64,000 bases of DNA from a virus, in the IMG/VR virus record IMGVR_UViG_3300049324_000053; one strand, given 5' to 3'. The notes beneath the pieces are model-generated. The model did no database searches. It saw only the letters and a program-made list of their open reading frames with translations, and was not told the origin of the DNA. Below, piece after piece: positions 1,160 through 63,596 of the stretch. The position numbers and the translations under genes were made by a program. Position 1 is the first letter of the stretch; each line of letters begins with the position of its first letter.

Positions 1160-1339
1160 GTGGTCCTCCTGTTGGCGCCTCGGATGAAATCTACCTCTGA
1201 ACGGTCGTTCATCGCTAGAGATTGTGTGAATCGTTCGGGTGAAATATGCGGGCTACTTGCACAGACATTGCACGGCAACTGCATGGCAGACACGGGACGT
1301 CTGCGGGAACACCGCCGAAAGACGGCAGAAAAAGGGCAC

Positions 1340-1381
1340 AAAAAAAGTGCCATGCCTGCACGAGAAGTGCAGGCATGGCAC
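1340..1381 (-). terminator. Intrinsic terminator of the Ku-lig-AAA-VWA operon
   Basis: 15-bp perfect stem GTGCCATGCCTGCAC-GAGAA-GTGCAGGCATGGCAC followed by T7 on the minus strand, just after the VWA stop. Confidence 0.85.
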
Positions 1382-1385
1382 ATGT

Positions 1386-2963
1386 TCAGACCAGCCGGTA
1401 CAGGTCTGCGATCCGTTCGATGTCGGTCAGGTCGTCGATGCGCCGTGTCTGGTCGGCCAGCGCCTTGAGCACCGGCGTCACGCTCGCCGCGATCGACACG
1501 GTGAACAGCCGGAACCCCAGGCGCGTCTTGGTCGCCGCGAACTCGGTGGCGAACGCGCTGGCGGCGTTGATGTCCCACTCGCCGTCGGTCAGCAGCACCA
1601 CGTCCGCGGCGACACCCGGCTTGCCGAGCGGCCCCTCGATCAGCGCTGCCGCCTGCATCAGCGGTGCCGGCAAGTTCGTACCACCGCCGAACGTGTGCCC
1701 GGCCCACTCCAGCAGCCCGTCAAGGTCGGCGTCGGTGCGCCCACCGGGGAACTGCCAGCATCGCTGTTGACTGAAGCTACTGAAATTGATCAGAGCGAGA
1801 TCCCGGCGGCCGGTACGCGCCGTGTCCGCAAGCCCGAGCGCTATTGCCTTCGCCCACGCCTCCCGCATCACCCCACCGAGGTGTTCTTCCATCGACCCGG
1901 ACGTGTCGACCAGCACGATCAGCGCACCCTGCCCGGCACGTTCCACCCCGGCGTAGGCCCGCGTCAGCAGCTGCCCTTCCCCGAGGCGTGCGAGGAAGTC
2001 CAGGCGGGTGTGCCGGTTGGTCAGCGCCACCAGCTCGCTGCCGAGCACATCCGGTAGCCGGTCGGACAAGTCCACCCCGATGACCTCGTCACGGCCGGTG
2101 ACCACTTTGCGGGCCCGTTCGGTGTTCGCGCGTACCCGCACCCGGCCGATCAGATCCGCGAACTGCGCGAGGCGATGCGCGGACAGCTTTGCCAGCAGCG
2201 CCGCCCGCTCGGCGACGTCCACCGTGCCGCCCGCGCCCGGGTCCACGCCCCACGCTGCGAGCAGCGCCTCATGCGCCGCCAGCTTCGCGTCAGCAGCTTT
2301 CGCCGCCGCGTTCACCGCGGCCCGCATCCGGCTGGCGGCCTGCGCCGGCAACCCCTCGCTGGCAGCGTCAGCCTCCTCGGCAGCATCCAACGCCTGCGCC
2401 AGCGCTTCGACCGCATCCTGCCCGGCCGGTTCACTGCCGTCCGCCGGCGCCGTCTCGGTGCCGTCGCCGGAGGTGTCGGTCTGCTGTTCGGCTTGCGCCA
2501 GCGCCTCGGTCAACGCCGCCGCCGCCTGCTCGGCCGCCGCCGCCTGCCGCTGCTGATGTTCGGCGGCCGTCGACAGCCGTTCGGTCAGCACCGGCGCCAG
2601 CGTCAACGCCCCGATCGCCGCGCCGTACTCGTCGTGACGAGTACGTTCCCGTAGCTCCTGCACCGCGTGCAACTCGGCCAGCTGTCCGATCGCCGCTCGG
2701 TTTACCTGATAGCCGGTGGCCATCGCCGTCGGGTCCGCCAGTTGCGGCGCACCCTGGTACAGCAGCGCCAGTAGATCCGTCACCAGCTCCGGTGCATGAT
2801 CGTGCGCTTCGGCCAGTTCATCGGTCAGCGTGGCCAGGGCCGGAAGACTGTCCCGCAGCTCGGTCAGCATCCGTGCATCGAACCCGGTCGTGACCACCGC
2901 CTGCGTCGCGGTGCGTGCCGCCCGCCGGCCGAGGAACGCCCGCGCCCGGTCCAGCAGACTCAC
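1386..2963 (-). CDS. VWA domain protein (ViaA-like)
   Basis: MIDAS VDTSGSM, GGGTN, LLTDGE; start overlaps the AAA stop. Confidence 0.9.
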   Translation of the reverse strand: MSLLDRARAFLGRRAARTATQAVVTTGFDARMLTELRDSLPALATLTDELAEAHDHAPELVTDLLALLYQGAPQLADPTAMATGYQVNRAAIGQLAELHAVQELRERTRHDEYGAAIGALTLAPVLTERLSTAAEHQQRQAAAAEQAAAALTEALAQAEQQTDTSGDGTETAPADGSEPAGQDAVEALAQALDAAEEADAASEGLPAQAASRMRAAVNAAAKAADAKLAAHEALLAAWGVDPGAGGTVDVAERAALLAKLSAHRLAQFADLIGRVRVRANTERARKVVTGRDEVIGVDLSDRLPDVLGSELVALTNRHTRLDFLARLGEGQLLTRAYAGVERAGQGALIVLVDTSGSMEEHLGGVMREAWAKAIALGLADTARTGRRDLALINFSSFSQQRCWQFPGGRTDADLDGLLEWAGHTFGGGTNLPAPLMQAAALIEGPLGKPGVAADVVLLTDGEWDINAASAFATEFAATKTRLGFRLFTVSIAASVTPVLKALADQTRRIDDLTDIERIADLYRLV

Positions 2964-4147
2964 AACGCCACCATCGTCTCGGCGGTCTTACGGGCCGCGG
3001 GCTCCTTCATCCCCAACGAGATCATCAGCACGTGTGTCTGCACCGTCATCAGCAGCTCACAAGCAGCCGTGAACCGGCTGTTCGTACGGGTAGCGGCGTC
3101 CACCTCGGCCAGAGCCTCGGTGAACTTGCGCAGCTGTGCCTGCGCATCACCGGCCCACGCGGAACGCTTCTCGCGCGCCAGACCGTCCTGTTCGGAAAGC
3201 TGCCCGTACAGCACGTCGAGTGCGTCGGCGACCTCACCGATGATGCGCAGCTGCGGGTCGCCGTGTGCGTTGACCAGCTCCCGGACCGCAGGCAGATGTG
3301 CCGGGTCATCCCACAGCACATGCACCAGTACCGACAGATCCGCGGCGGCGACCGTGTCACGTCCCGACAGGAACGCCTGCGCCTGCAGCACCCGCACACA
3401 CATCGCCCACCGGCGGTCCGACGGAACGATCCCTTTGCGAGCCAGCCCGGTGCGTAGCGTCCACAACGTCGAGATGATCGCATCGGGGATGCGCACGGCA
3501 GGCACCAGCACGTCAGCGGCGGTGTGTAGTTCGTCCAGCGTCACCGTCGTCGGTGTTGTCGTGGCGGTAGTCGCGGCGCGGGTCAGCAGCCGCGCGAACG
3601 ACCCCGGTTCGCGCACATAGTCGACCGTCAGCCGGATCGTGAACCGGTCCCACACGGCTGCCAGTTCGGTCTCCAACAGTTCGTTGCTGGCCGAGAACAT
3701 GCTGATCAGTGGCAGGTCACGCCAGCCGGCGCCGTCGTTGAACCGGCGTTCTTCCATGACCGTCAAGTACGGGTTCACACTCGCTGGTCCCGCCTTGCCG
3801 ATCTCGTCGACGAACGCGACATCCGCATCGACGAGGGTGTCGGTGGTGCGCCGCACCCATTCGCCGGTGGCTTCGAACCGGGCGATGTCGATCGGTCCGA
3901 AGCTTTCCTCGCGAGGCAGCTGCCGATCCATCAGCACATGCCAATACCGCGCGTCGACGACACGTGCCGTCAACGCGCGGACCATCGCACTTTTACCGGT
4001 GCCGGGCGGCCCCAGCAGGAACGCGTGGGAGCGTGCCAGCAGTGCCACCGTCAGCATGTGCAGCGCCTCGTCGCGTTCGATGAACTGCCCTGCCAGTTCG
4101 CTGATGATGGTTGTCAGCTTCGAGGCCGTCGTCTGCGTGGTGATCAT
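2960..4147 (-). CDS. MoxR/RavA-family AAA+ ATPase
   Basis: GPPGTGKS, FVDEIGKA, ASNE, WDRF, SDRRW; ATGA overlap with the ligase stop. Confidence 0.9.
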   Translation of the reverse strand: MITTQTTASKLTTIISELAGQFIERDEALHMLTVALLARSHAFLLGPPGTGKSAMVRALTARVVDARYWHVLMDRQLPREESFGPIDIARFEATGEWVRRTTDTLVDADVAFVDEIGKAGPASVNPYLTVMEERRFNDGAGWRDLPLISMFSASNELLETELAAVWDRFTIRLTVDYVREPGSFARLLTRAATTATTTPTTVTLDELHTAADVLVPAVRIPDAIISTLWTLRTGLARKGIVPSDRRWAMCVRVLQAQAFLSGRDTVAAADLSVLVHVLWDDPAHLPAVRELVNAHGDPQLRIIGEVADALDVLYGQLSEQDGLAREKRSAWAGDAQAQLRKFTEALAEVDAATRTNSRFTAACELLMTVQTHVLMISLGMKEPAARKTAETMVAL

Positions 4148-5091
4148 GCTGCCGCCTCGATTCGGGGAACGTCGACCAGCTGGTCGATCGTGCAATCTAC
4201 GGGCGCGATGTCGTCGCGCAACGACAAAAAAACGGGATGCCGTGGCATCCCGGATGGTTCGAGCAGCGCCGACACGCTGATCTCTGCGACCTGCAAGCGT
4301 CCACGATCAATCCCGGCACGGACCCGGATCAACTCTTGGGTTGACAGCCCGGACCCGACACGGCCGAACTCGACCACACCGGCCGGGCCGACCAGCGCCA
4401 GCTGCAGCGCACCGAACGTCGCCGCTCGGCTGCCGTTGCCTGCTGTCGCACCGACGACGACCGCCGACACCCGATGTTCAGGCTTGAGTTTCACCCACGC
4501 CCCGGATCGTCCCGGCGCCCACACCGCGCTCGGCGCTTTGGCGACCAGCCCTTCGAGGCCACGCCGGGTCACGAACCGCCATGCGGCAGGTCCGTCGTGA
4601 AACTCGCGCACCGGCCGCAGCCGGATGCCGCGCAGCTGTAGCGCTCGCAGTGTCGCCGATCGGACCCGCTGTGGGGTGCGCCGCAGGTCCGCGCCGTCCG
4701 CGACGAGCACATCGAACGCGCAGTACGCCGCAGGCCACCGCCGCGCCGCCACCGTGATCGCCGCCGTGCTGGCCTGCGCATCACGCCGATGGGTTGCCGC
4801 GAAATCGGGCTTGCCGCCGGTGAACACGACCACCTCACCGTCCAGCGTCCAGACGCCGGCCGGGAACTTACGCGCCAGTGACGCGGTGATCTCCGGGAAG
4901 CGTGCGGTGGCGTCGAGACCGCGCCGGCCGGTCAACGTCACCCGGCCATGCTCGACGTGCGCGACCATCCGCACCCCGTCGTACTTCACCGAGAACAGGT
5001 AACCGCGAGACGCAAGCACGTCGATCGCCTCGGGGATGCTCGGCGCGATTCGCCGATGGCTCTCGGCGAGCATCACCAGCGGGGCGTTCAC
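4144..5091 (-). CDS. Minimal ATP-dependent DNA ligase (adenylation + OB domains)
   Basis: Motifs KYDGVR, LDGEVV, FDVL, EGLVAK, WVKLK, GRVGSG, RHPVF. Confidence 0.93.
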   Translation of the reverse strand: MNAPLVMLAESHRRIAPSIPEAIDVLASRGYLFSVKYDGVRMVAHVEHGRVTLTGRRGLDATARFPEITASLARKFPAGVWTLDGEVVVFTGGKPDFAATHRRDAQASTAAITVAARRWPAAYCAFDVLVADGADLRRTPQRVRSATLRALQLRGIRLRPVREFHDGPAAWRFVTRRGLEGLVAKAPSAVWAPGRSGAWVKLKPEHRVSAVVVGATAGNGSRAATFGALQLALVGPAGVVEFGRVGSGLSTQELIRVRAGIDRGRLQVAEISVSALLEPSGMPRHPVFLSLRDDIAPVDCTIDQLVDVPRIEAAA

Positions 5092-5927
5092 GCCGACACC
5101 GGTGCCTTACGGGCACGTGACTTGCGCGCCGCACGCGGCTTGGGGGCGGCGGCGGCCTGCTCGGCGGCGGTCTTCTCGGCCACCGCTGCGGTCAGCCGGT
5201 CCAGCAGACTGGTCACCGTTGCGTCCGGCCCGCTCGTGTCCGGCGCGCTACCGGCAGCCACCGGCGTGATCGCGGCGAGCGCCGCATCGAGGGCCGCCGC
5301 ACGGGCGTCGATGTAGTCGGCCTCGTTGAACGGGGTGCACGCCGCGTCGGCGAACGCCTCGACCGCTGCGAGCAGTGGCGACGCCGCAGGCAGGCTCGGT
5401 GCGGCGGGAGCCGCACGCATCTGCTCCGGGCGGGCCAGTGCCGTCAGCGTCAGCACGCCGCGCGCCACTCCGAGCCGGTAGAGCCCGACCCGGGAGCGCG
5501 GTGCCCACTGGGCCAGGAATGCCAGGTCCGGGCGAGTGGCCACCAGCTGCGCGATCAGCGCGTACGCGGTGTCGGTGCTGGCGCGCGCCTTGAGGTGGTA
5601 GACGTTGCCCGCCGCGAGCAGCGTCACGTCGTCGGCGCGATGCACCGACAGCGCGATCCGCTCCTTCAGTTCCGGTGCGACCGGCGCGAGTGTGTCGGCG
5701 GGGACCAGCACCAGTGTGCCGTCCGCCAGTTCGCGAGCCGAGGCGAAACCGTGCCGGTCGGCGGCCTGGCAGGTGGGGCACGCGACGGACTGACGAACCC
5801 GGATCGGATCGTGCCCGGCGTCGCAGACGGTGTGCAAAGACTCCGGGGTGCTGACGGCGGCCTCGACGTCGATCAGTGTGCTGACGACCTCGGCCAGCTG
5901 GAGTGTGACCTTGACGCGGACCGCCAT
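5088..5927 (-). CDS. ku: Ku-like DNA end-binding protein
   Basis: Ku-like N-terminus, 'RVRQSVACPTC' Zn knuckle, basic C-terminal tail; coupled to the ligase. Confidence 0.7.
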   Translation of the reverse strand: MAVRVKVTLQLAEVVSTLIDVEAAVSTPESLHTVCDAGHDPIRVRQSVACPTCQAADRHGFASARELADGTLVLVPADTLAPVAPELKERIALSVHRADDVTLLAAGNVYHLKARASTDTAYALIAQLVATRPDLAFLAQWAPRSRVGLYRLGVARGVLTLTALARPEQMRAAPAAPSLPAASPLLAAVEAFADAACTPFNEADYIDARAAALDAALAAITPVAAGSAPDTSGPDATVTSLLDRLTAAVAEKTAAEQAAAAPKPRAARKSRARKAPVSA

Positions 5928-6035
5928 GATGACGGCCTCCCTTCGTGATGGGCGTTTAGATTAGCGCACCTGTATGTCAGAGTACGCGAGCAAGCTCCGT
6001 GACGCAGCGTGAACCGCTACGCCATCCGGGTGAAA

Positions 6036-6245
6036 TCAGGGTCGTTCAACGACCGTTGAGGGAATGCCCGTTGAGGGAATGCCGGCCTCGACTTGGGCAA
6101 GGTGCGCCGCGCCGGCCCTTTTGGCGTCCGCGTGATAGGCGATGCCCTCGTACACGATGCCGCACGAGCAGGTCACCGTGTAGGTTCCTTCGCCATGCCA
6201 GCGCAGCCCCGAGATGCTCCAGGTGTGACTGGCGGCGTCGCTCAT
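6036..6245 (-). CDS. Small hypothetical protein (CxC/H)
   Basis: Coupled in the minus-strand array. Confidence 0.55.
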   Translation of the reverse strand: MSDAASHTWSISGLRWHGEGTYTVTCSCGIVYEGIAYHADAKRAGAAHLAQVEAGIPSTGIPSTVVERP

Positions 6246-6508: not shown

Positions 6509-6517
6509 CGCCGCTTC

Positions 6518-7505: not shown

Positions 7506-7883
7506 TCACGCGCTCGCGGCTTCCTGTTCGGGACCGTTCGGGTGCGCCTGCCGGTAGGCGTCGATGACCGCGTTCGGCAACGGTCCCTGCGAGGAGACTT
7601 CCATGCCCTGACGGATGGCCCACGCACGCATCCGCGCCCACTGCCCGTCGCCGCGGACGCGCTGGCGCTGCCGCTGCGTTGTGGAGCGCACGATGTGCGC
7701 CGGGGCTTGCGGTTCGAGTAGTGGCCGGGCCAGCGGAACCCAGGGCGCCAGCGCACTGAACATCTCGCCGGCTTCCTCCTCCGTCAAGTCGATCTCGAAC
7801 CCGTGACCGGGACGTCCGAGCTGGTAGCGCGCCGCGGGAGACTTGCCGGACAGGTCGCTGATGATGACCAGACGTTCGGCCAT
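7506..7883 (-). CDS. lsr2: Lsr2-like nucleoid protein, variant AT-hook
   Basis: 'SDLSG', 'FEIDLTEE', 'MRAWAIRQGMEVSSQGPLPNAVIDAY'; AAAGGAG RBS. Confidence 0.85.
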   Translation of the reverse strand: MAERLVIISDLSGKSPAARYQLGRPGHGFEIDLTEEEAGEMFSALAPWVPLARPLLEPQAPAHIVRSTTQRQRQRVRGDGQWARMRAWAIRQGMEVSSQGPLPNAVIDAYRQAHPNGPEQEAASA

Positions 7884-7909
7884 GGGGGTGGCTCCTTTCG
7901 TGTTGAGGG

Positions 7910-9202: not shown

Positions 9203-9766
9203 TCATGACGTTGCCTGCACACCGAGCAGCGCGTCGATGCCTGCGAGGCGTTCGAGCAGTCGCGTCCGTTCGGCCAGCAGCGAGGCACGTTCGTCGTCGG
9301 CGGCGGCGCGCACCTCGGTCGCCGTGCTGTCGCCGCCCAGCAGCGATATCCGCTTGATGGCGTCGAAGCGCACCGGGGGGTGGCTGTCGATCAGCACGCC
9401 CAGCGTGCCGCGCGTGGTCTTCGTGGTCATGCCGACGACCGTGCCCTCATAGATGTTGTCCGAGGCCGTCAGCACCTGCACCGTGCGTCCTATGAGGGTC
9501 AGGATGTCGATCGGGGTCGGTGCGCCCTCGTGCACAGGCTCGGGCGGCGGCGGCGCCTCGTAGGTCAACTTCCCGCTCTTGAGGGCATCGATGGTCAGCG
9601 AGGCGTCGACGCTTTGCAGCTCGTACTTCCAGTTGCGCAACCTGATGTCGATGTTGTTCGCGTGCAGTGCGTCCTCGACGTCGGCGAATCCGTTCTGCTT
9701 GGCGAGCCGCTCCAGTAGGTGCATCTGCGGTTCGGTGACCAGCTTCGAGCCGATCTTGCCTGCCAT
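9203..9766 (-). CDS. Hypothetical protein
   Basis: 187 aa, RBS. Confidence 0.7.
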   Translation of the reverse strand: MAGKIGSKLVTEPQMHLLERLAKQNGFADVEDALHANNIDIRLRNWKYELQSVDASLTIDALKSGKLTYEAPPPPEPVHEGAPTPIDILTLIGRTVQVLTASDNIYEGTVVGMTTKTTRGTLGVLIDSHPPVRFDAIKRISLLGGDSTATEVRAAADDERASLLAERTRLLERLAGIDALLGVQATS

Positions 9767-9883
9767 GTCGTTCCTGCTCTCGTGTTGTCGGGTGCCGTTG
9801 AACGGCCGTTGAGGCGACGTTGCGTGCGTTCATGATATCGCATATTAGCGGGGAGTGCAGTAGCGTAACCGTGCTGTTACCGA

Positions 9884-9921
9884 ACGCAGGCCCGTTCAAC
9901 GCTCGTTGAGCGGGCCTGCGT
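9884..9921. terminator. Intergenic hairpin, probable terminator
   Basis: ACGCAGGCCCGTTCAAC-GCTC-GTTGAGCGGGCCTGCGT, just downstream of 9937..10230. Confidence 0.6.
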
Positions 9922-9936: not shown

Positions 9937-10230
9937 TCAACGCCCGTTAGGAGACCGTTTGCGCGGTACGTGCCAGCGCACCGGCAGACACGACTTGCGC
10001 GCCCGCTCGATCATCACCAGCAGTACCTGTCCGGCGCCCTCGTCCGCAGACGCTCGTTCGTCCAGCGCGTACGCCGCCGACCGCAGCACCCCGAGCATCC
10101 CGTGCCAGTCGCGGGCGTCCAGCTCATCGACCGGCACCGTCGCCATCGTGCGGACCAGTTCGACCAGTGCCTGGCCCGCCGCCGTGTGCGTCGGCGTGTG
10201 CGTGCGGGTTGCCGTTGCCGTCGGGGTCAT
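9937..10230 (-). CDS. Hypothetical protein
   Basis: Coupled array. Confidence 0.6.
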   Translation of the reverse strand: MTPTATATRTHTPTHTAAGQALVELVRTMATVPVDELDARDWHGMLGVLRSAAYALDERASADEGAGQVLLVMIERARKSCLPVRWHVPRKRSPNGR

Positions 10231-12094: not shown

Positions 12095-12465
12095 GCGTCC
12101 TCCTCGTCGTCGTTGTCGTCCATGGAGTCAATGATCGTGCCGATGGCTTCGGGGACCGAGGACAGCGGGACGCATTCGGTCAGCCGGTTCCACAGTTCAT
12201 CGGTCAGCGTGCGTCCGGCCCACGCCTCGGCCTGCTCGCGGGAGATCAGCTCTGTGATCGCCTCGTCGCGTGGGGTCGCCGTGATCTGCACGATGTCCAG
12301 CGCGCGCCACCCCGCTTTCAACGCGGCGGGGATCTCCCGTGCGTTGGCCGTCAGGTGACTACTGAAGTCGGCCGGTGCGTCGGCAACGTCGAGTCCGTAT
12401 TCCGTGGCCCACGTGTCGGCGTCCACCTCGAACGTCAGCATCATTTCCACGCGCATGGTGCTCAC
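12091..12465 (-). CDS. Hypothetical protein
   Basis: Coupled array. Confidence 0.7.
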   Translation of the reverse strand: MSTMRVEMMLTFEVDADTWATEYGLDVADAPADFSSHLTANAREIPAALKAGWRALDIVQITATPRDEAITELISREQAEAWAGRTLTDELWNRLTECVPLSSVPEAIGTIIDSMDDNDDEEDA

Positions 12466-12908
12466 GCCATCCCCGCGATGGTGACGGCCGAGGCGTGCAG
12501 CAAAAGGCCCAGCTCCGGCCCGGTCGGCAGTGGCAGGTACTCGGCTGCCTGACGCAACGCGTCACACTCGTCGGCGTGCTCGTCCTCGTGCTCGCACGCG
12601 TCGGTCACTGCCCCGTCCCGGTAGCCCTCCAGCGGGTAGCCGTCGAACGTCGGGGCGTCGATCTTCCAGCCGTCCGGTCCCAGGGACAGGTAGGCCGTGA
12701 CCTTCTCCTCGACGTGGTGCCGGTCGGCCGCTGCCGCCACGAACCGCACCGCCGCCTCATGCGCCTGCTCGTACAAGGGCGTCACGGTGTCCGTGCCCGT
12801 GCGCTGGCTGGCCGGTGATGCGTTGTAGGCGTCGCGCGCCTGGTTGTAGTTCGTATGCGCAGCAAGGAACTGGGCCGCGGGGTCAGGGTTGTTCATCTCT
12901 TGCGTCAT
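12462..12908 (-). CDS. Hypothetical protein
   Basis: GGAGG RBS. Confidence 0.7.
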   Translation of the reverse strand: MTQEMNNPDPAAQFLAAHTNYNQARDAYNASPASQRTGTDTVTPLYEQAHEAAVRFVAAAADRHHVEEKVTAYLSLGPDGWKIDAPTFDGYPLEGYRDGAVTDACEHEDEHADECDALRQAAEYLPLPTGPELGLLLHASAVTIAGMA

Positions 12909-12951
12909 GTTGGCCTCCGTAGGCGTTGAACGAGCGTTGAATGTGGGTCCG

Positions 12952-14906: not shown

Positions 14907-14969
14907 TGCCTACCGGGGAAGTCGAATCCCCGAACGGTCGTTGACCGTCTCGCCCGTGTGCGGGTAGGC
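14907..14969 (-). ncRNA. Miniature tRNA-like structure
   Basis: 7-bp acceptor GCCTACC/GGTAGGC+A; T-arm GGGGA-TTCGACT-TCCCC; anticodon-like stem ACGGT/ACCGT with a 5-nt loop; 63 nt. Confidence 0.5.
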
Positions 14970-16580: not shown

Positions 16581-16958
16581 TCACGGCGTGCGGGTGCGCG
16601 GCGTGCGCGCCCGGTACACCGAGGTGCGCTCCTTGGTGTCCTTGTCGTAGAACTTCAGTTCGTAGCCGAAGGAGCGCCAGCGCCATGTGTCGTACTGCGG
16701 GCGCAGTCGGAAACGGACTGTGCATTCCGGCGCGTAGCGGCGCCACCCGGAGTGCGACTCTGGCCGGGTGTGAATCTCGGTCACCGTCACGTACGCCTGG
16801 TGGTATCCGGCACGGTCGGTGCCGTCCCCGAGGATGATGACGTCGCCGGGGCGCAGATTGCGCGGCAGACGTTCGATCCGTTCGTAGGTCACTTCGTCCA
16901 CGGTGATGGAGTCCGGCTCCGGCGGTGCTTGGTGGTACGTGTAGGTCGGGATGAACAT
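16581..16958 (-). CDS. Hypothetical protein
   Basis: GAGG RBS. Confidence 0.6.
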   Translation of the reverse strand: MFIPTYTYHQAPPEPDSITVDEVTYERIERLPRNLRPGDVIILGDGTDRAGYHQAYVTVTEIHTRPESHSGWRRYAPECTVRFRLRPQYDTWRWRSFGYELKFYDKDTKERTSVYRARTPRTRTP

Positions 16959-16987
16959 GGTCGGGCCTCTCGTCGTGTTGACGTCGG

Positions 16988-17368
16988 TCAACGGTCGTTG
17001 AAGCTGAATCTGCCGCCGTGCGCGGCGGTGCGGATGGCGTCATGCCAGGGCAGGCGCATGGTGCGCCCGGCGTCGTCGGTCACGATGGCGGCGTCGTCGT
17101 CGTCGCCGGTCACGGTCGCCGGTCGGCCGTCAAGTGTGACGGGCGTCCGGCGCAAGTGCTTGGGCATGAAGTACGGCCACCATGCGGCCGGGTGGCGCTC
17201 GACACGCACCCATCGGCCGGTGCGGGTACGAACGGTCAACGTAAAGCCGTACGCGCCGACACGGACCACCTCGGCGGCTCCGGTGGCGTGCACGATCACG
17301 TCGCCGATGCAAGGTCGTCGGGCGGCGACCTTGTACGCCGTCCGGTGACGGCTCATGGTGATCGTCAT
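16988..17368 (-). CDS. Hypothetical protein
   Basis: Coupled array. Confidence 0.6.
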   Translation of the reverse strand: MTITMSRHRTAYKVAARRPCIGDVIVHATGAAEVVRVGAYGFTLTVRTRTGRWVRVERHPAAWWPYFMPKHLRRTPVTLDGRPATVTGDDDDAAIVTDDAGRTMRLPWHDAIRTAAHGGRFSFNDR

Positions 17369-40624: not shown

Positions 40625-40713
40625 GGTGGCAGCGTAGTGGGGTTGTTTGTCGTCGCACAAGACGTGCCGATGGGCTGGAATGTCGCCTTCTGAACTCCGG
40701 CGGCAAACGGTCG

Positions 40714-43215: not shown

Positions 43216-43587
43216 TTCAGCGTGACACCGGTGTGGGCAGCTGTGTTGATGCCGCGCGTGAGGTTCGCGGTGATGATGCAACCTGTCCGTGGAACGACTG
43301 TCGAGGACAGGTTGATTTTCTCTTCATCGTGCACATGTCATCCACATGGTCTGTGTTAAAGAACTGCTGAGAACACTTGGCTACACTGCAGGCGCCATGC
43401 AAACGTCATGCATGTCGACAGCAGAGCACCTACCTTCTGACCTGCGGTTTACCATGGCTTCATCTTGCAGGCGATACGTGGATCATCAGCGTGATGACAC
43501 GCCGGGACTGTGTATCCGGCACCCGGTGCATCTGGGCGTGGTATGCGATAAGCTCAACGCCCGACCCTCATGCAAGCAGGTGCCCGC

Positions 43588-49796: not shown

Positions 49797-51608
49797 ATGA
49801 GCATCAGCTTAGCTTCTACGCAGCCCCCTGACCATCACTATGGTGTGGCGTCCGTCACTGAACAAGTGCGATGGTTCGCCACTGATCTGAACATTCGGAA
49901 CGCGGCTCGTGACGCATTGTGCGGACATGGTCGCATCGGGTCATTCGCTGACTGTGTCCTGGAACGGATGCGTCTGCTCGTCGACTGGCGTGAACCGCTG
50001 GCCATGGTGCCCGGCGCGCCGTCGGGCACCGACCCCACCGGCGGGCACAGCATCCATTCACGCGCTCAGCTGCTCGGCGTGCGTCATGAGCATCTGGCCC
50101 GGGTCGAAGCGCTGCTCGTCGCACACCAGCTGGCCCTGTACGACACCGACGGCAGCCTGCGGATCGCGGCCTGGAAGCTCGCCGGCCGCCAGTCGGCCAA
50201 CAAGCACCGTTACGGCCATGTGCGGACCACGCAGTCGACCTACGACAAGTGGTGGCAGGCGCTGCTGGACGCCGGCCTGCCATCCTTCGTGCGGTATCTG
50301 GTCTTCGGTGCGCTCGCCGCCCTGGAACGTGATCCGGCGTTGACCGGCGACGACGGTGAACTGCTGTGCGATGTGATCTCCACGGCCGAGCAGCTACGGA
50401 TACCGCGCAGCACCTGGGCGCGCTGGCTGGTGCTGCTCGTCAAGCATGGGGTGCTGATGCGGATGGGGCGCGGCCGGTACCGGCTGGTGTTCGACGCGGC
50501 GGTGCGCCGGCGGCCGGCCTTCCTGCTGGTCACGACGCCATCGGTGTCGTCGCTCGTCGAGGCGGCCGACGACGAGGCGGCCGACCCAGCTGGCGAGACG
50601 GCTGACGAACCGGCCGACGACCCGGCCGGCGACCCGGACCGAACGCTCGTTGAGGCGCCGCGAACTCTCACCGGCGGAACACGATCAAGCTTCCAGGGGG
50701 GTGACGAGAGCGTTTGGGCTCTCACCGGCGCAGAATCGCACCGCTCTGACCTGCGGGTTCGCGGCCCTGTAGAAGCAAAAGAATCTTTAAAGGAAGAAGC
50801 TAAAGCTGCACAGCTACGAGCAAGCTCAGGCTTCTTCCTCGATCACTTCAAAGAGCCGGCCGGGCGGCGGGTGCGGGCGCTGCTGGAGATCCTCATGAGC
50901 GTTCGTCTCGACCTGGCGCCAAGGATGACCGATTCGTTCCCGTTGCGCCGGGCGCTGGGCGACGTCATCGCCGCCGGTGACGAGCTGAACTACCCCGACT
51001 GGCGGGTCTGCCGCGACGTCAAGGAGCACTGGATTTACTCCGCGGACACCGTCGGTGGCGTGGTCTACGCCATGAAGGCGCTGGCCAAGGACTACCAGCA
51101 GCTACGCGACCGCAAGCAGGCCGCGGCGGCACGCCGCCGGCTGCTCGATGCCGACCAGGTGCCTTCAGCTTCGCCGAAGCCGACCGCCGAGCAGCTGGCG
51201 GCCGCCGATGCCGCGCTGGCCGCCAAGGCGGACGCCAACGAGGCCGCTGTTGGCGCTCAACAGGCCCAGGCTGCGCGAGAACGGGCTGCTCAGGCGCAGG
51301 CGTTGGCTGCGCGGGAGGCAGATCCGAATTCGTCGTTCAACATGATCAGGGCTGCCGGCGCCGCGGCGAGGCGGCAGGACGAGCGTCGTACGGCGGTGTT
51401 CGCTGCGCTGCGCGCCGCCGAGCAGAACCAACTGGCGAGGCGACTGGTGCCGGGCGAGTCGCGGGGCCCGGCGTGGAAGCCGTTGCCGGAGAGGGTGGCG
51501 AGGTTGGTGCTGGCCGAACTGGACAAGCGTTGCGGTGCGGATGCGCCGGCCGCGCGGTTGATCGCGTGCGCCAGGACGGTGCTCGGTGGGGAGAGTGCGG
51601 TCGCATAA
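49797..51608 (+). CDS. Putative replication initiator (wHTH)
   Basis: 603 aa; 'TAEQLRIPRSTWARWLVLLVKHGVL'; divergent from dnaB; internal A-rich tract. Confidence 0.55.
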   Translation: MSISLASTQPPDHHYGVASVTEQVRWFATDLNIRNAARDALCGHGRIGSFADCVLERMRLLVDWREPLAMVPGAPSGTDPTGGHSIHSRAQLLGVRHEHLARVEALLVAHQLALYDTDGSLRIAAWKLAGRQSANKHRYGHVRTTQSTYDKWWQALLDAGLPSFVRYLVFGALAALERDPALTGDDGELLCDVISTAEQLRIPRSTWARWLVLLVKHGVLMRMGRGRYRLVFDAAVRRRPAFLLVTTPSVSSLVEAADDEAADPAGETADEPADDPAGDPDRTLVEAPRTLTGGTRSSFQGGDESVWALTGAESHRSDLRVRGPVEAKESLKEEAKAAQLRASSGFFLDHFKEPAGRRVRALLEILMSVRLDLAPRMTDSFPLRRALGDVIAAGDELNYPDWRVCRDVKEHWIYSADTVGGVVYAMKALAKDYQQLRDRKQAAAARRRLLDADQVPSASPKPTAEQLAAADAALAAKADANEAAVGAQQAQAARERAAQAQALAAREADPNSSFNMIRAAGAAARRQDERRTAVFAALRAAEQNQLARRLVPGESRGPAWKPLPERVARLVLAELDKRCGADAPAARLIACARTVLGGESAVA

Positions 51609-52886: not shown

Positions 52887-53054
52887 GCGCGAGCGCGCAC
52901 CTCGCTGCGCGCTCGGTTCGGACTCGACACGCCGCCTGGGGGGATGGGCGTGGAGAATTCCGGGTAACCGCAAGACCCCCTTTGACGTGGCGCAGCCGTG
53001 GCGATGGCACCCGCCCGCGGCTGCGTCACACCCCCCGGCACGAAGGACGACATC

Positions 53055-53447
53055 ATGCGCCGCATCATCGAGCAGCTCACCGACGACCTGACCGACGCAC
53101 CCGCCGACGAGACCGTGCGCTTCGCGCTCGACGGCACGAGCTACCTCATCGACCTGACCGCCGACAACGCCAAGACGATGCGGGAAGCGTTCGCGGCGTA
53201 TGTCGAGGTAGCTCGCCGGGACAGTGCACCGGCCACCGGCGGCCGCGCGGCGGCCCGCGGCGGCGGCCGGCGGGTCACCGCGGCCGCGCAACGTGCCGCG
53301 CGCAGCGCGTATCTGCAGTCGGTGCGGGCCTGGGCCCGGGACCACGGTTACACGATGTCGGAGTTCGGGCGGGTACCGGAGTCGGTGCTTGCCGCGTACG
53401 GCGAAGCGACCGGCGTGCACAGCCCCGACGATCTGACCGACGTCTGA
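53055..53447 (+). CDS. lsr2: Lsr2 family protein
   Basis: DDL, ETVRFALDGTSYLIDLT..NA, VRAWARDHGYTMSEFGRVP..V.AAY. Confidence 0.92.
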   Translation: MRRIIEQLTDDLTDAPADETVRFALDGTSYLIDLTADNAKTMREAFAAYVEVARRDSAPATGGRAAARGGGRRVTAAAQRAARSAYLQSVRAWARDHGYTMSEFGRVPESVLAAYGEATGVHSPDDLTDV

Positions 53448-53453: not shown

Positions 53454-53735
53454 ATGTCCGGTGTGACGCAGGTGCGGTGGTTGCGGCCGGCGGACGGGCA
53501 GGTGTTCCACGCGTTCGTCGGCCCGGCGCCGGGCCGTTCGGAATGCGCGGAGCCGTTCAACGACCGTTGGGAGCCCCCCGATGTGGGAACGGTCTGGATG
53601 CCGCTGTGCCCGCGCTGCCTGACCGCACGGCTGTCGGCACCGCTGCCGCTGCTGCCGGACGTGGCGCTCGGACCCCCGGTCGCCACGGTGGCCGCCGACA
53701 TGCCACGTCAGCCGACCCCGGGGCCTGGTACCTGA
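53454..53735 (+). CDS. Zn-finger-like hypothetical protein
   Basis: H...C...CPRC. Confidence 0.5.
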   Translation: MSGVTQVRWLRPADGQVFHAFVGPAPGRSECAEPFNDRWEPPDVGTVWMPLCPRCLTARLSAPLPLLPDVALGPPVATVAADMPRQPTPGPGT

Positions 53736-56556: not shown

Positions 56557-57078
56557 ATGCCGACGCAGCCCGTTCCCACGCAGGATCGCCCTCGCCGCGG
56601 CTCCCGCGCCGGCACCGTGTCGGCCAGCGGCGAGTACAACCGGGCGCGGATCTTGGCGTATCTGGCGGACTGTGAGGCGCAGCGTAAGAATCCCACGATC
56701 TTGGAGATCGGCGCCGCGCTGGGGTTGGCGTTCGGCACGGTGCGCCGGCATCTGCTGACGATGGAGGCCGATGGCCGCATCGAGCGGGCCGGGCAGGTGG
56801 GGCAGGCGCGGGTGTGGCGTTTGACAACCTCGACGCCGGGACCGGTCGAGTCGCTGCGCGAGGTGTTCTGCGCTCGGCTGGCCGCTGCACGGATCACGGC
56901 GGGGTTGAGCGTCGAGCAGGCGGCCATGGCGGCAGGAGTGGCGCCGGAGTGGTTGCGACTGCTGGAGAACGGTGAGGCGCTCCCTGTGACCGGCATGCTG
57001 CTCGATCAGCTGGCGTCGGCGTATGGGACGTCCCTGGCGGCGTGGTTGTTCGAGCCGTTATTGGCTCCGATCGGCTGA
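56557..57078 (+). CDS. LexA-type wHTH fused to an XRE HTH
   Basis: 'ILAYL.....NPTILEIGAALGLAFGTVRRHLLTMEADGRIER' + 'RLAAARITAGLSVEQAA..AGV...LRLLENG'. Confidence 0.8.
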   Translation: MPTQPVPTQDRPRRGSRAGTVSASGEYNRARILAYLADCEAQRKNPTILEIGAALGLAFGTVRRHLLTMEADGRIERAGQVGQARVWRLTTSTPGPVESLREVFCARLAAARITAGLSVEQAAMAAGVAPEWLRLLENGEALPVTGMLLDQLASAYGTSLAAWLFEPLLAPIG

Positions 57079-58655: not shown

Positions 58656-58665
58656 GACGGTCTTC

Positions 58666-59202
58666 GTGGGACGCGCCGACTTCGACAACGCCAAAAAGCT
58701 GTACCCCAGTGTCAACATGGGCGAAGCCGAATGGTTCGCCTATTTTCAGACCCCCGCCGGCGAACAAGCCATCGGCTACATCATGCGCGACATCTACGAC
58801 GAGGTGCTCGCCCTGGAAGAACGCGACACCGGCCGCGTGCCCATGGGCCGGCGCGCCGCCCGCCCCGCCGTGCCGCTGTCCACCGTGTACGCCAAAGTGT
58901 TCCCCCCCGCTTACAGCAACGAACCGTTCCCCGTGGCGCTGCGCACCCTGATGAACGGTCGTTCGATCCGCGCGTTCGCCGCGAAAGTTCCCATGGCGCA
59001 CGTCCCGCTGCACCGGCTGCTGGCCGGTGCCGACACCCCGGACCTGCGGCTCATGGAAGCCATCGCCGCCGCCGCCCGCGTCAAGCCAACCTACTTTTTG
59101 GAATACCGCGCCCAGTTCGTCGCCCTCATGGTGCAGCAAGCATTTCTCGCTCGCCCGCATCTGTCGATCCGTGCCATCCATGACCTGAAAGTGACCGCCT
59201 GA
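58666..59202 (+). CDS. XRE-like HTH protein coupled to terminase
   Basis: 'SIRAFAAKV.M....LHRLLAG...P....MEAIA......PTYF.EYR'. Confidence 0.65.
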   Translation: MGRADFDNAKKLYPSVNMGEAEWFAYFQTPAGEQAIGYIMRDIYDEVLALEERDTGRVPMGRRAARPAVPLSTVYAKVFPPAYSNEPFPVALRTLMNGRSIRAFAAKVPMAHVPLHRLLAGADTPDLRLMEAIAAAARVKPTYFLEYRAQFVALMVQQAFLARPHLSIRAIHDLKVTA

Positions 59203-61943
59203 TGACCGCCAAGGCGATCGTTGCGCCCAACGAAGAAGAGTCCTATCTGGTGGCGCTGCTCGACTCGATCGACGGCATCGACCTGGCCGAGGCATTCTGG
59301 TCGGACCCGTCCACCGCGACCGGCTGCTTTCGCGTCTGGGACTTTCAGTGGAAGTGGTTCACCTGCACCGACACTTTGCAGGCTGATCAATGCGGGCGTG
59401 GTGTCGGCAAATGTCTCGCCCCCGACACCCGCCTGACCCTCGCCGACGGTCGTCGTATTCGGGTTGCCGACCTTGCCGCCGCGACCGACCCCACCGCGAT
59501 CCTGGCCACCGTCGCCCGCGCCGACGACGCCGTGCACGGGTTCGAACTACGACCCGGCACTGTGTACGTTTCCGGACATAAGGCGTGCCTGCGGATCCGC
59601 ACCGTCAGTGGCCGGATCCTGACCGTCAGCACCGACCATCCGGTGTTCACGAGTACCGGCTGGCGCAAGGCCGGCGAACTGGCCGGCGACGACTCGCTCG
59701 CGATCGCCGCCTACCAGCCGGTGTTCGGCCGCAAGGTGCTGCCCCGCTATCTGGTGCGGCTGCTGGCACACGTTATCGCCACCGGCGGCGTCGGTGACCG
59801 ACCCCGCGACGTGTGGTACTCCTCGGCCGACGCCGGTACCGACACCAGCTACTACGACGACCTGGACGCCACCCTTGGCGCTGCCAAACTCGTCGCCCGG
59901 CCCGTCTCTCGCCGCGACCGCATGATCAAAATTGTGGGGGAACGGTGCGGCCCCGGCAACGGCATCGGCCCGTTCATGGCCCAGGCCGGCATGACCGGTG
60001 CCCGCGCCGGCACCATGCGCATCCCCGACCTGGTCTTCGCCCTGCCCGCCCGGCAGCTGGCCCTGTTCCTCGGCCGGCTACTGCAACCCCCCCACGGTGT
60101 TGCCGTGCGCGCCGGCACCGTGCGCTATCAGTGCGCCAACCCGGCGATGGCCGCCGACCTCGCGCATCTGCTCACCCGGTTCGGTGTCACCAGCCGGATC
60201 CGCAGCAAACTGCTGCCGTCCATGCGGGGCCGCACCCGCACCGACGCCCGCATCCAGGTCGTCACCATCGACGACCCTGCAAGTCTCGTGCGGTTCGCCG
60301 CCGTCGTCGGCCCCCACGTGCTCGGCGGCACCCGCACCGCCCTCGACGCCCTGGTCGCCGGCCTGGACCCGGCCGCGTTCACCGCGGCCGCTGCCCCGCC
60401 GGTCGTGGTGTTCGACTCGGTCGCCGACATCACCGACGCCGGCGAACAGGATGTCTATGACGTGACGATGTCCGGCGAACCACAGCTGTTCGCCGACGAC
60501 GTGCTCGTGCACAACTCCACGAAAATCATCATGCGCGGGTTCGCGCATCCTTTCCACGCCCCCGGCGAGCACATGTTCATCACCGCCCCCGAGCTGAACC
60601 ATCTGGGACCGCTGACCGACGGGCTGCAGAACCGGTTCGAAGGCACCCGTATCGGCGCCGAGATGATGACCAAAGGCCGTGGTGGGGGCATCACCAAGCA
60701 GCCGCACTGGCAGGCCCAGTTCCTCAACGGCGCGAAGATCATCACCCGGCTACCGAACCGGGACGGCCGCGGCGTCAAAAGCCAGCATGCCAGCAAACTG
60801 CACCTCGACGAGGCGCAGGACTATCCCGCCGCCGGCTGGAACGAAGTCCAGCCCACCTTCAAACGTGGCGTGCCCGGCGCGCAATGGCATGTGCATGGCG
60901 TTCCCCGCGGTGTGCGGGACAACTTCTACGCCATCACCAGCGACGAGTCCAAGTTCACCGTGCACCGGTATTTTGCCTGCCACCGCCCGGACTGGTCGGA
61001 CAACGAACGGGCCGAGGCCATCCGCAACTACGGTGGTTCGCCGCGGGATCCTGATTACAAGCGCAACATTTTCGGCGACCATGGTGATGCGACGAACCCG
61101 CTGTTTGTGTTGTCTCGGTTCATTGCCGTCTGCGACCTGGACCCTGGCAGTGACTACAACACCGCCGTCTACGCCGCCCGGTCCCTCAGCGACGAACTGC
61201 TCGCCGACCACGACCTCGACGCCCTGCTCGACCTGCCCGCCATCCACCGCATCGGCTATAGTCGCGCACCCCGCGGCTACAGCGCTTACTACGGCGGCAT
61301 GGACGTCGGCATGACGAATCACCCATCCGAGGTGTTGATCTTCGGCCAGCGCACCGGCACCGAGCTGATGGAGCTGCTGCTGCGCGTGCATATGGAGCGT
61401 GTCGACACCGAGCGTCAGGTGATGGTCGTGCAGCGGCTGTTCGACTTCTACGGCAGCAAGCTGATCGCGTTCGCCCTGGACAGGACCGGTATCGGTCACT
61501 CCGTGTGGGACCTGTTGGACAAGTCCTACGTCGGGGATCGGGTGTACGGGTACCACTTCAGTTCGAAGGTCCCGGTTGGTATCCGGGAAGCGGCCGAGGG
61601 CGAGGATCCGCACGACCTCGACGCGCTCATCGAGATGCGCGACCTGGTCGAACACGCCTCCGACGTGCTGCGCGTGGACTGGGTCGACGCCGGCCGGCTG
61701 CAGCTGCCCGCTGATGACGAGCTGCTCGGTGAATGGCAGGGGCAGACGTACAAGGTGGAGAAATCCGGCGGAAACCTCTACGGCAAAAGGGTGTATTCCA
61801 AGGGAAAGATGCACACCTTAGACGCAGGCAAGATGGCGGCCGCGGCAAAGACATTGCCGCCCATTCAGGATGCCATCGACCGGGCCCGTGCGGTGCACGA
61901 CGTCGACCCGGTGTTCGACGAGTTCCTCGGATCGTCCTGGTGA
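59202..61943 (+). CDS. Terminase large subunit with intein
   Basis: Walker A GRGVGK|S split by an intein; Walker B LHLDEAQD; nuclease GMDVG, LDRTGIG, HTLDA. Confidence 0.85.
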   Translation: MTAKAIVAPNEEESYLVALLDSIDGIDLAEAFWSDPSTATGCFRVWDFQWKWFTCTDTLQADQCGRGVGKCLAPDTRLTLADGRRIRVADLAAATDPTAILATVARADDAVHGFELRPGTVYVSGHKACLRIRTVSGRILTVSTDHPVFTSTGWRKAGELAGDDSLAIAAYQPVFGRKVLPRYLVRLLAHVIATGGVGDRPRDVWYSSADAGTDTSYYDDLDATLGAAKLVARPVSRRDRMIKIVGERCGPGNGIGPFMAQAGMTGARAGTMRIPDLVFALPARQLALFLGRLLQPPHGVAVRAGTVRYQCANPAMAADLAHLLTRFGVTSRIRSKLLPSMRGRTRTDARIQVVTIDDPASLVRFAAVVGPHVLGGTRTALDALVAGLDPAAFTAAAAPPVVVFDSVADITDAGEQDVYDVTMSGEPQLFADDVLVHNSTKIIMRGFAHPFHAPGEHMFITAPELNHLGPLTDGLQNRFEGTRIGAEMMTKGRGGGITKQPHWQAQFLNGAKIITRLPNRDGRGVKSQHASKLHLDEAQDYPAAGWNEVQPTFKRGVPGAQWHVHGVPRGVRDNFYAITSDESKFTVHRYFACHRPDWSDNERAEAIRNYGGSPRDPDYKRNIFGDHGDATNPLFVLSRFIAVCDLDPGSDYNTAVYAARSLSDELLADHDLDALLDLPAIHRIGYSRAPRGYSAYYGGMDVGMTNHPSEVLIFGQRTGTELMELLLRVHMERVDTERQVMVVQRLFDFYGSKLIAFALDRTGIGHSVWDLLDKSYVGDRVYGYHFSSKVPVGIREAAEGEDPHDLDALIEMRDLVEHASDVLRVDWVDAGRLQLPADDELLGEWQGQTYKVEKSGGNLYGKRVYSKGKMHTLDAGKMAAAAKTLPPIQDAIDRARAVHDVDPVFDEFLGSSW
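59412..60515 (+). mobile_element. Intein (368 aa) with degenerate LAGLIDADG homing endonuclease
   Basis: CLAPDT start, 'STDHPVF' block B, 'VYDVTM...LFADDVLVHN|S' end. Confidence 0.93.
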
Positions 61944-62895: not shown

Positions 62896-62938
62896 GTCTT
62901 AAGAGTAGCACCGAAGTGCTTGGTGTTGCACGTGGGTG

Positions 62939-63331
62939 TTACTGTGTGTGCATGACCAAGACCGTGCGGATCCGCGTGCTGCGCAGTACCGCTGACCGGC
63001 TGCGCGATCTGGCCGACGCCCAGCACACCACCATCGACGCGGTGCTGCGCGCGGCGCTGGACGCGTTGCAGCGCAAGCGGGAACGTGAGCGGCTTGCCGC
63101 CGAGCCGGAGCCGGCCGAATAGGACTTAGGTGTAGGTCGGGTGCGTTTGATGGCCGCGATCCGTTCGCGCTCACGCTGCTCGTCGTCGTCACGCAACACC
63201 CGGTGCCCGGCTTCGATCAGCCGCAGCAGCAGCTCACGGCGAGTGTCTTCGGGCCAGTACTCCATGGCTTCGTCGATCGCTTCGGCGATCGCGTCCGTTT
63301 CCGTGATCCAGAAGCGGCGTCGGATCGGCAT
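62939..63331 (-). CDS. Paralogue of the VapB antitoxin with replaced C-terminus
   Basis: 'FWITETDAIAEAIDEA..YWPE...LLLRLIEAGH'; tail runs antisense across 62952..63122. Confidence 0.6.
   Translation of the reverse strand: MPIRRRFWITETDAIAEAIDEAMEYWPEDTRRELLLRLIEAGHRVLRDDDEQRERERIAAIKRTRPTPKSYSAGSGSAASRSRSRLRCNASSAARSTASMVVCWASARSRSRSAVLRSTRIRTVLVMHTQ
62952..63122 (+). CDS. Small RHH protein (antitoxin-like)
   Basis: MTKTVRIRVLRSTADRLRDLA....TTID.VL..AL. Confidence 0.7.
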   Translation: MTKTVRIRVLRSTADRLRDLADAQHTTIDAVLRAALDALQRKRERERLAAEPEPAE

Positions 63332-63355
63332 GCTTGAAACTCTAGACTGCTCGCC

Positions 63356-63544
63356 ATGGAGGACACGGATAATTCGTTCGTCGACATCACTGCCTACGTT
63401 GACGAGCTGCTCGCCGACGAGAAGCTACGTCCGGAGATCGACAGGATCTACGAAAGCATGCTGGCGGCCGACCGTGTGCATGCACTGCTGCGGGCGGCTT
63501 CCGGTGCCGGCAAGGCTGCCGATGAGCCCGATGAGAGGCTGTGA
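63356..63544 (+). CDS. Small helical protein (possible antitoxin fragment)
   Basis: TAGACT 7 nt before ATG. Confidence 0.55.
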   Translation: MEDTDNSFVDITAYVDELLADEKLRPEIDRIYESMLAADRVHALLRAASGAGKAADEPDERL

Positions 63545-63596
63545 ACGACCGTTGAGCGACCCGAACGAGGCCCCGAACGAGGCCCCGGACGCGGCC

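Follow-up and report, generated by a model that had tools for sequence, protein, structure and literature searches.

A dispersed AACG-NN-CGTT dyad in a clade of large actinobacterial phages and a LexA-type candidate for its reader

The IMG/VR virus record IMGVR_UViG_3300049324_000053 holds a stretch of 64,000 nucleotides, hereafter the window, that is part of a large, uncultured, high-GC actinobacterial phage. Seventeen copies of a short palindrome, AACG-NN-CGTT, are scattered along it, an excess of about 20-fold. The excess of this dyad is real and under selection. The dyad is probably a regulatory protein-binding site. More tentatively, we read the dyads as phage-private operators resembling the SOS box, recognized by a protein with a LexA DNA-binding domain whose gene is kept upstream of the terminase large-subunit gene (terL).

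Excess and form of the dyad

The core AACGNNCGTT has 17 exact matches in the window, compared with 0.76 ± 0.89 in 100 dinucleotide-preserving shuffles (maximum 4). From the half-site frequencies 1.2 copies are expected, and the half-sites by themselves are not in excess. An earlier note on this DNA had put the chance figure at about 0.5 per 64 kb, which is of the right order. All 16 coordinates that it listed are genuine, and one further site, at 40706-40715, completes the set. Both comparisons that the note had named set the window apart. The shuffles are one. For the host chromosome, a 4.6-Mb actinobacterial metagenome-assembled genome (Jatrophihabitantaceae) served as a stand-in; its 45 sites amount to 0.01 per kb against 0.27 per kb in the window, a 27-fold lower density.

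Among all 4-mer dyads with spacers of 0 to 8, AACG-N2-CGTT is by far the top dyad of the window (Poisson p 2e-14). The two-base spacer accounts for all 17 copies, while N0, N1 and N3 to N8 yield 0-2 each. The central dinucleotide is variable (GT 5, AC 5, CT 4, others 3). The base at -1 is G at nine sites, C at seven and A at one; position +/-1 is thus nearly never A or T, and position +/-2 is T/A. The 14-mer T-S-AACG-NN-CGTT-S-A (S, C or G), proposed in the earlier note as the motif, is complete at 10 of the 17 sites, where 0.02 are expected, and the other seven have the core only. At five sites a third CGTT block flanks the dyad on one side (CGTT-S-AACG-NN-CGTT), in an 11-bp register. This asymmetry, 5 to 0, is weak and tracks the + strand, independent of gene direction.

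The dyad shares its architecture with the SOS box. AAC-N4-GTT is contained in all 17 sites, and to this extent the earlier suggestion of a LexA-box-like operator stands. The full GAAC-N4-GTTC is found at two sites only (1199 and 58953).

The core is also exact. One-mismatch cores at the two-base spacer number 20 in the window, with 21-39 at other spacers. Pooled over six genomes, 145 perfect sites are accompanied by 107 one-mismatch sites, with about 98 at other spacers. Neither count is an excess. The near match at 21774 in the earlier note is a plain one-mismatch site (GACG) and belongs to the background, because this class is not enriched. A 17-letter extended motif gave only chance-level matches across the genome-contig collection, and a second word common to the sites at 1200 and 6048, GATTTCACCCG, shows no enrichment in the window.

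Placement of the sites in the window and its relatives

The sites of the window are the following (coordinates of the core, no strand assigned).

1200-1209, TGAACGGTCGTTCA, with the strong vWA terminator (1347-1381) on one side and the DUF6744 start on the other, about 40 bp ahead of a strong Shine-Dalgarno sequence and ATG
6048-6057, TCAACGACCGTTGA, with the extra CGTT block at left, about 120 bp upstream of the Ku-ligase-MoxR-vWA operon
9801-9810, the promoter-distal site in a cluster of three, 35 bp ahead of the ATG of 9203-9766, which shares an operon with the RuvB-like gene
9898-9907, middle of the cluster, within a longer palindrome with 16-bp arms, 41 bp from the 9939 site
9939-9948, third of the cluster, overlapping the stop codon of 9937-10230
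12929-12938, intergenic, 21 bp before the ATG of 12462-12908
14933-14942, 83 bp upstream of the DUF932 gene
16990-16999, at the stop/start junction of 16988-17368 and 16581-16991
23085-23094, in a divergent region, 148 bp upstream of 23242-23835
25359-25368, within the XRE helix-turn-helix gene 24926-25759
29132-29141, near the 3' end of 29083-29520 (minus strand), about 100 bp upstream of the next start
36750-36759, within 36638-37150 (minus strand)
40706-40715, overlapping the stop of 40714-41484 (minus strand), 46 bp upstream of 40421-40660; the site added here
50642-50651, within an uncharacterised 547-residue gene adjoining the dnaB triplet
53559-53568, within 53454-53735, directly after an Lsr2-like gene
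58954-58963, within a 178-residue gene directly before terL, 248 bp before the terL start
63544-63553, in or before 63474-63968 (uncertain gene call)

Called genes cover 83% of the window, and 8 of the 17 sites lie outside them (p = 0.004). This bears out the earlier observation that copies lie upstream of genes. Three further sites fall on stop codons or a stop/start junction. Sites precede DUF6744, the Ku-ligase-MoxR-vWA operon, 12462-12908, DUF932, 16581-16991, 40421-40660 and 23242-23835. The gene 9203-9766, first of the RuvB-like operon, is preceded by three (9939, 9898 and 9801), and the sites at 9898 and 9801 flank a promoter-like TTAC-N16-TAATAT, read by eye. A promoter scan of positions 1-20 kb detected none. 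Because of its three upstream sites, 9203-9766 was considered as an autoregulated reader and rejected, having no Pfam match, no relatives and no DNA-binding fold in its Atlas model. A 15-bp direct repeat, CCGTTGAGGGAATGC, lies upstream of the Ku operon in two tandem copies (6053-6083), the first overlapping the site at 6048.

Motif-bearing contigs were collected from IMG/VR with a scan for two sites 4-34 bp apart, an 18-mer scan of the first match and a protein-profile scan.

G005, 86 kb, 43 sites, consensus TGC-S-AACG-NN-CGTT-S-GCA
G012, 53 kb, 46 sites
G013, 30 kb, 16 sites
G016, 23 kb, 15 sites
G015, 21 kb, 8 sites

Two additional contigs, L360 and L361, also bear the motif. The expected count is 0.1-1.3 sites per relative, and the observed density is 0.4-0.9 per kb. 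The window shares with these genomes the exact core, the 2-bp spacer, S at +/-1 and the high density, together with kinship in TerL and in gene content. A DUF6744/vWA/MoxR/ligase/Ku/RuvB cluster is common to the window, G005 and G012, and a terL module is common to the window, G005, G013, G015 and G016. The outer flanks of the window sites (T at -2) are unlike the TG at -4/-3 of the other motif-bearing genomes, and the 18-bp extended palindromes vary among lineages. The motif-bearing genomes group as a single clade on a TerL tree (support 98/95). The place of the window on this tree needs care, since it sits on a long branch.

The motif is specific to this clade. Sister phages G007-G011 have 1-6 sites in 67-149 kb. 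Four of them (G007, G008, G009 and G010) are 137-149 kb long and 88-100% complete, have the same 40-46% TerL identity, and carry 3, 1, 2 and 6 sites. At 34 terL loci AACG-NN-CGTT was found about nowhere. Gene-content profiling separates motif-bearing from motif-free genomes by only three genes, encoding Ku, an Lsr2-like protein and an Ig-like protein. It has little power, because all motif-bearing genomes belong to one clade.

Several sister and unrelated phages have palindromes of their own. GACG-N2-CGTC is in excess, at the 2-bp spacer only, in G007 (L294-L301; 33 against 9 expected) and G008 (L302-L309; 49 against 15), with T and A favoured at -4/+4 as in G005 and G012; it may represent the same family of operators with one letter changed. 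G010 (L310-L316), a relative with a lower guanine-cytosine (GC) content, has canonical CGAAC-N4-GTTCG boxes, three of them within 130 bp (134791-134930) and others at 7652, 12500 and 129604. One G010 box is identical to the Bacillus consensus, and no LexA_DNA_bind gene was detected in G010. Ku, found in the window, G005 and G012, is absent from the near-complete G007-G010, which keep DUF6744, vWA and the RuvB-like gene; MoxR is missing in G009. Three genomes taken at first as motif carriers (G002, G003 and G014) were rejected, their actual motif being ACGGCCGT. This 8-bp palindrome occurs 93 times in G002 (L277-L279), 226 times in G003 (L280-L285) and 111 times in G014 (L356-L358), where 2-5 copies are expected. 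These are unrelated phages with a GC content of 0.56-0.60, and theirs is a separate, much stronger phage-wide palindrome.

Position relative to genes is biased. Among the 145 pooled sites, 52 (36%) lie no more than 150 bp upstream of the nearest start codon, compared with 19% of random positions (p 1e-6), and they are concentrated at -60 to -150. The first 150 bp of genes are depleted, with 9% of sites against 19% of random positions. Some positions are conserved. Each of the five motif-bearing genomes covering this region has a site just upstream of terL, in differing codons of the preceding gene or in the spacer. A site between vWA and DUF6744 is present in all three genomes that hold both genes, the counterparts of window site 1200 being at 75780 in G005 and 14911 in G012. 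In G005 sites are dense in the non-structural arms and rare across the tail-gene block. A handful of sites have a SigA-like promoter at a fixed distance (site, 25-27 nt, TTGCGC, N18, TAnnnT): G005 49680, G013 22709, L360 and L361, with a similar arrangement at window site 9898. As a general rule this arrangement was rejected, since only a handful of sites fit.

The exactness of the core also suits a reading in which the 8-bp sequence is the target of a sequence-specific enzyme, such as a methyltransferase, a nickase or another DNA-modifying enzyme, or serves as a mark of self. The core is all-or-none across the 145 pooled sites, and about 70% of the sites in G005 and G012 are intragenic, in all three frames. 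However, no methyltransferase or nuclease domain was found among the roughly 70 window proteins scanned, and enzyme targets are usually avoided rather than accumulated. The enrichment upstream of starts, the positions kept relative to operons and the operator-like variation of the 18-bp palindromes among lineages also argue against an enzyme. We consider this reading unlikely.

A replication initiator is another possible reader, with the cluster at 9.80-9.95 kb as all or part of an origin and the single sites as secondary or titrating. At least 22 unrelated IMG/VR contigs carry the same core in 11-bp-phased arrays inside a DUF1376(+DnaT) gene (L165:2641-2739, L180:2454-2556, L163:9975-10029, L183:3774-3828 and about 18 more loci; GC content 0.43-0.69). 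Often arranged in two clusters with 170-187 bp between them, these AACG-NN-CGTT-S arrays encode N-x-R-S-T repeats and are probably the in-gene replication origin of that initiator family; their layout is the classic one for origins of this kind. Because the core forms arrays in these genes, another type of protein reads the same core elsewhere; an hhalign comparison of DUF1376 with LexA-like profiles found no relation. The third CGTT block at five window sites repeats the 11-bp register. The origin reading stays alive because the cumulative GC skew of the window reaches its lowest point at about 11.0 kb, not far from the three-site cluster (the highest is at about 58.0 kb). The skew changes sign at 8-11 kb independent of gene orientation, all genes from 62 to 22710 lying on the minus strand. 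The minimum is shallow, however, and neither the window nor some 800 kb of DNA from related phages yielded a DUF1376 relative. Nor is there a true array: the phasing extends to at most 1.5-2.5 units, and the tightest spacings between window sites are 41 and 97 bp. The sites are instead spread over the entire window and conserved ahead of terL and DUF6744. We consider an origin about as unlikely as an enzyme target.

A candidate reader upstream of terL

The most likely reader of the sites, judged from its sequence and gene neighbourhood, would be the product of 56557-57078, which is encoded upstream of terL.

56557-57078, + strand, candidate reader, 173 residues, with a winged helix at about residues 28-90 and an XRE helix-turn-helix at about 100-165
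59202-61943, + strand, terminase large subunit, 913 residues, interrupted by an intein with a LAGLIDADG-like domain

The earlier note had called this protein a fusion of a LexA-type winged helix and an XRE domain. The call was right, since the N-terminal half is a winged helix and the C-terminal half an XRE domain. Taken alone, the protein gives an IclR-type winged helix, with ClgR and 434-type XRE domains matching its C-terminal half. No Peptidase_S24 domain was found in it. Its syntenic counterparts in G005, G013, G015 and G016, which are all the motif-bearing relatives with coverage of the terL region, are stand-alone LexA_DNA_bind proteins of 74-92 residues (92 in G005). They score above the Pfam cut-off, with 61 bits in G005, 25.3 in G013, 28.7 in G015 and 25.6 in G016. 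The genes of this family lie 2-5 kb upstream of a conserved module encoding a 205-residue protein, a 178-residue protein and terL. When a family profile that includes the N-terminal half of the window protein is compared with the PDB, its top matches are nine sequences of LexA repressors (E 1.5e-9 to 3.7e-8), aligned over the DNA-binding domain.

The sites themselves connect to this family in several genomes. Twin sites 40-52 bp apart head the operon with the winged-helix gene in G005, G013, L360 and L361, and in the G013 group the proximal twin site lies 26 nt before a promoter-like TTGCGC-N18-TAGCCT. The 41-bp twin of the window has a similar promoter-like distance, although it precedes 9203-9766 and not the window's own candidate. 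Those G005 sites that have G at -1 match CGAAC-N4-GTTCG perfectly.

Several observations weigh against assigning the sites to this reader. The winged-helix half of the window protein resembles the family weakly (33% identity; LexA_DNA_bind 16.6 bits, below the cut-off), and its top-scoring match when taken alone is an IclR-type regulator. The dimerisation domain of LexA is missing from a stand-alone LexA domain. There is no site within 1.8 kb of the candidate gene; the nearest is at 58954, and on the upstream side the nearest is at 53559, about 3 kb away. Motif-free relatives, among them G009 and several terL loci, have divergent family members too, and G007 has the GACG-N2-CGTC excess but no detectable family member. 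Another reader could be encoded in the roughly one half of the phage genome that the window does not cover. The sites of G012 are mostly intragenic, without an upstream bias, and the missing one-mismatch excess is unusually strict for a transcription-factor regulon. Since the motif-bearing genomes are one clade, co-occurrence of gene and motif is not independent evidence, and Ku and the Lsr2-like gene co-occur with the motif equally well.

Given the shared architecture, we asked whether the LexA of the host could be the reader, making the sites true SOS operators that link phage genes to DNA damage. The common AAC-N4-GTT supports this, as do canonical half- or full boxes at some sites (window 1199 and 58953; several in G005) and the canonical boxes of G010. 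Yet host LexA is an unlikely reader, because GAAC-N4-GTTC occurs at no more than two of the 17 window sites. At the outer position C is as frequent as G, T-S stands where CGAAC has CG, and LexA does not require the inner G..C that is invariant here. The stand-in actinobacterial genome shows no excess of the motif. This explanation is somewhat less probable than an enzyme target or an origin.

Other proteins encoded in the window were considered as well.

43588-44987, + strand, ParA and its small partner (partner 44496-44987, 163 residues)
5088-5927, - strand, Ku, from the family scan
7506-7883, - strand, Lsr2-like, with dimerisation and DNA-binding domains
52998-53447, + strand, Lsr2-like, with dimerisation and DNA-binding domains

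The earlier note had offered the ParA partner as a binder, and the sites would then be parS or KorB-like sites of the ParA system. Such dispersed partition or operator sites are known from KorB of RK2 and from N15, and the phage does encode a ParA ATPase with a small partner. However, the nearest sites are 3 and 6 kb from the par genes, none lying within 3 kb of them or in the 372 bp upstream of parA (43215-43588). The partner is ribbon-helix-helix-like by eye, with no Pfam or PHROG match and no ParB/KorB domain, and the motif-bearing G005 and G012 have no ParA match. The partition reading is not supported, and we regard it as the least probable of the alternatives. The 372-bp region, AT-richer than its surroundings, has short palindromes of its own, for example CATGCAAACGTCATGCATG, and may be a true centromere or operator.

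Another clade-specific protein could also read the dyad: one of the Lsr2-like proteins, the Ku module, the XRE protein 24926-25759 or a protein encoded off the window. Alternatively, the sites could be recombination joints of gene cassettes. Among the motif-bearing genomes, all three with the cluster have Ku, which four sister genomes lack, and Lsr2-like genes are found in the window and G005 (one homologue) while G007, G009 and G010 have none. The RGR motif is altered in both Lsr2-like genes of the window, to GRV in one and GPL in the other. In Cluster O phages Ku occurs together with a dispersed dyad, and indels flanked by the sites are seen (PMC4351075). Against this, no Lsr2 was found in G012, and shared ancestry confounds the co-occurrence. 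Ku binds to DNA ends and Lsr2 to AT-rich DNA, and fixed dyad spacing is expected of neither. These possibilities together carry little weight, about as much as an enzyme target.

We tentatively prefer the reading in which the dyads are operators of the LexA-domain family. One phage-encoded dimeric DNA-binding regulator would occupy the AACG-NN-CGTT dyads, which are scattered over the non-structural part of the genome and lie chiefly before units such as DUF6744, Ku-ligase-MoxR-vWA, 9203-9766/RuvB-like, DUF932 and terL. The operators would keep the SOS-box architecture AAC-N4-GTT with an inner G..C of their own and altered outer bases, and because of these bases the regulon would be private and poorly read by canonical host LexA. 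The reader would be the small LexA-DNA-binding-domain family encoded 2-5 kb upstream of terL, present in the window in its XRE-fused form. Binding by the candidate would repress or activate the units that follow. This model draws on the excess, exact core and spacing, clade specificity, promoter-proximal bias and conserved positions of the sites, and on the presence, synteny and fold class of the candidate.

A broader scenario is possible but doubtful. This phage clade may have adopted a LexA DNA-binding domain, stand-alone or XRE-fused, and re-tuned the SOS box to a private operator (0.3-0.9 copies per kb) that controls nearly every early/middle unit and terL and is insulated from host LexA. 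Sister lineages would perhaps use GACG-N2-CGTC variants or canonical LexA boxes. If so, the sister operators would form a natural series of operator-reader co-evolution.

The window is assigned to a phage because it has a terminase and 34 terL relatives in IMG/VR, several on 137-149-kb contigs. A plasmid origin was rejected on the same grounds, the intein-bearing terminase and these relatives indicating a phage; the best matches of DnaB are actinobacterial plasmids. The terL of G015 is similarly long (890 residues), and those of G005, G013 and G016 are intein-free. A megablast of the window against phage and plasmid collections gave no match, no DNA or close protein similarity to cultured phages was found, and an exact 40-mer of the window is absent from IMG/VR. 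A 91%-identical relative, P0005, is encoded on a 145-kb JGI contig; two metagenome scans for the rest of the phage or for this relative found nothing. The gene map is based on third-codon-position GC (GC3), supplemented by family scans of window proteins. The leftward block comprises DUF6744, vWA, MoxR, an ATP-dependent ligase, a Ku-like gene, two small genes (one Lsr2-like), a RuvB-like ATPase and DUF932. Further genes encode ThyX, ParA and its partner, three tandem DnaB, the second Lsr2-like protein and two XRE-type proteins.

Comparison with known systems

The Gram-positive/actinobacterial SOS box is CGAAC-N4-GTTCG, with a Streptomyces consensus of tCGAAC-N4-GNNCGa (PMC9380542). The dyad resembles it as a 14-bp palindrome with AAC-N4-GTT at identical spacing, the candidate family has the LexA winged-helix domain, and some sites precede DNA-repair-type genes (Ku, ligase, RuvB-like). 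It differs in that the outer G of GAAC is free here (C or G), the preceding CG is replaced, and the inner G..C, free in LexA boxes, is invariant. The candidate lacks the S24 self-cleavage/dimerisation domain, and sites number 0.3-0.9 per kb instead of a few boxes. With the full GAAC-N4-GTTC mostly missing and no S24 domain in the candidate reader, the sites fall outside the LexA SOS boxes.

Stoperators of Cluster A mycobacteriophages are asymmetric sites, present in 20-35 copies, co-oriented with transcription and read by one phage regulator (gp71 in L5). As in that system, a short site is repeated genome-wide, at gene junctions and inside transcription units. The present dyads, in contrast, are symmetric, and many precede promoter-like elements instead of falling within transcripts. 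The earlier note had used the term stoperator, which denotes an asymmetric, co-oriented site of 13-14 bp. It fits only as an analogy, because the dyad is symmetric and not oriented with transcription. The KorB operator OB of the IncP plasmid RK2 is a near-invariant palindrome whose ParB-family reader is tied to partition. In RK2 this palindrome is dispersed over a mobile element of about 60 kb and acts at many promoters, a layout like the present one. Unlike RK2, the window has no ParB/KorB domain in the ParA partner or elsewhere that was found, and no site in the par region. By this comparison both the stoperators of Cluster A and the KorB network are analogues in function, and their defining features are absent here.

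In-gene origin iterons of phage initiators, of the lambda O type, are represented here by the DUF1376 arrays. These arrays have the identical 8-bp core with S at +/-1, and their 11-bp register is echoed at five window sites. They are tight and tandem, in one replication gene, whereas the sites here are single and dispersed. With neither an array nor a DUF1376 match in the window or its relatives, the dyads do not group with the DUF1376-type iterons.

Among described phenomena the best match is an invariant 17-bp dyad in Cluster O mycobacteriophages, TGTTCGG-N3-CCGAACA, which occurs in 34 copies without a named reader or function (Cresawn et al. 2015, PMC4351075). Both systems have invariant inverted arms, a free spacer and tens of copies per genome, are absent from host genomes and occur in phages with Ku. 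Within the non-structural arm both favour short gaps between genes and the 5' ends of genes; both are also found inside genes. The Cluster O repeat has 7-bp arms and a 3-bp spacer, compared with 4-6 and 2 bp here, and belongs to 70-kb prolate siphoviruses rather than to uncultured phages of about 130-145 kb. Since sequence and spacer differ, the window is not a member of the Cluster O repeats, which are an analogue and not the same class. Dispersed exact dyads of phages such as these repeats and the stoperators are known, mostly without a reader or function. For the AACG-NN-CGTT dyad a LexA-type candidate family and a link to the SOS box can be named, site positions are conserved, and there are sister phages in which the motif is missing or varied. 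The role of phage-wide palindromes is therefore directly testable. If the LexA-domain reading is true, a phage can copy the DNA-binding module of a host regulator, shift its specificity and build from it a genome-wide control circuit of its own.

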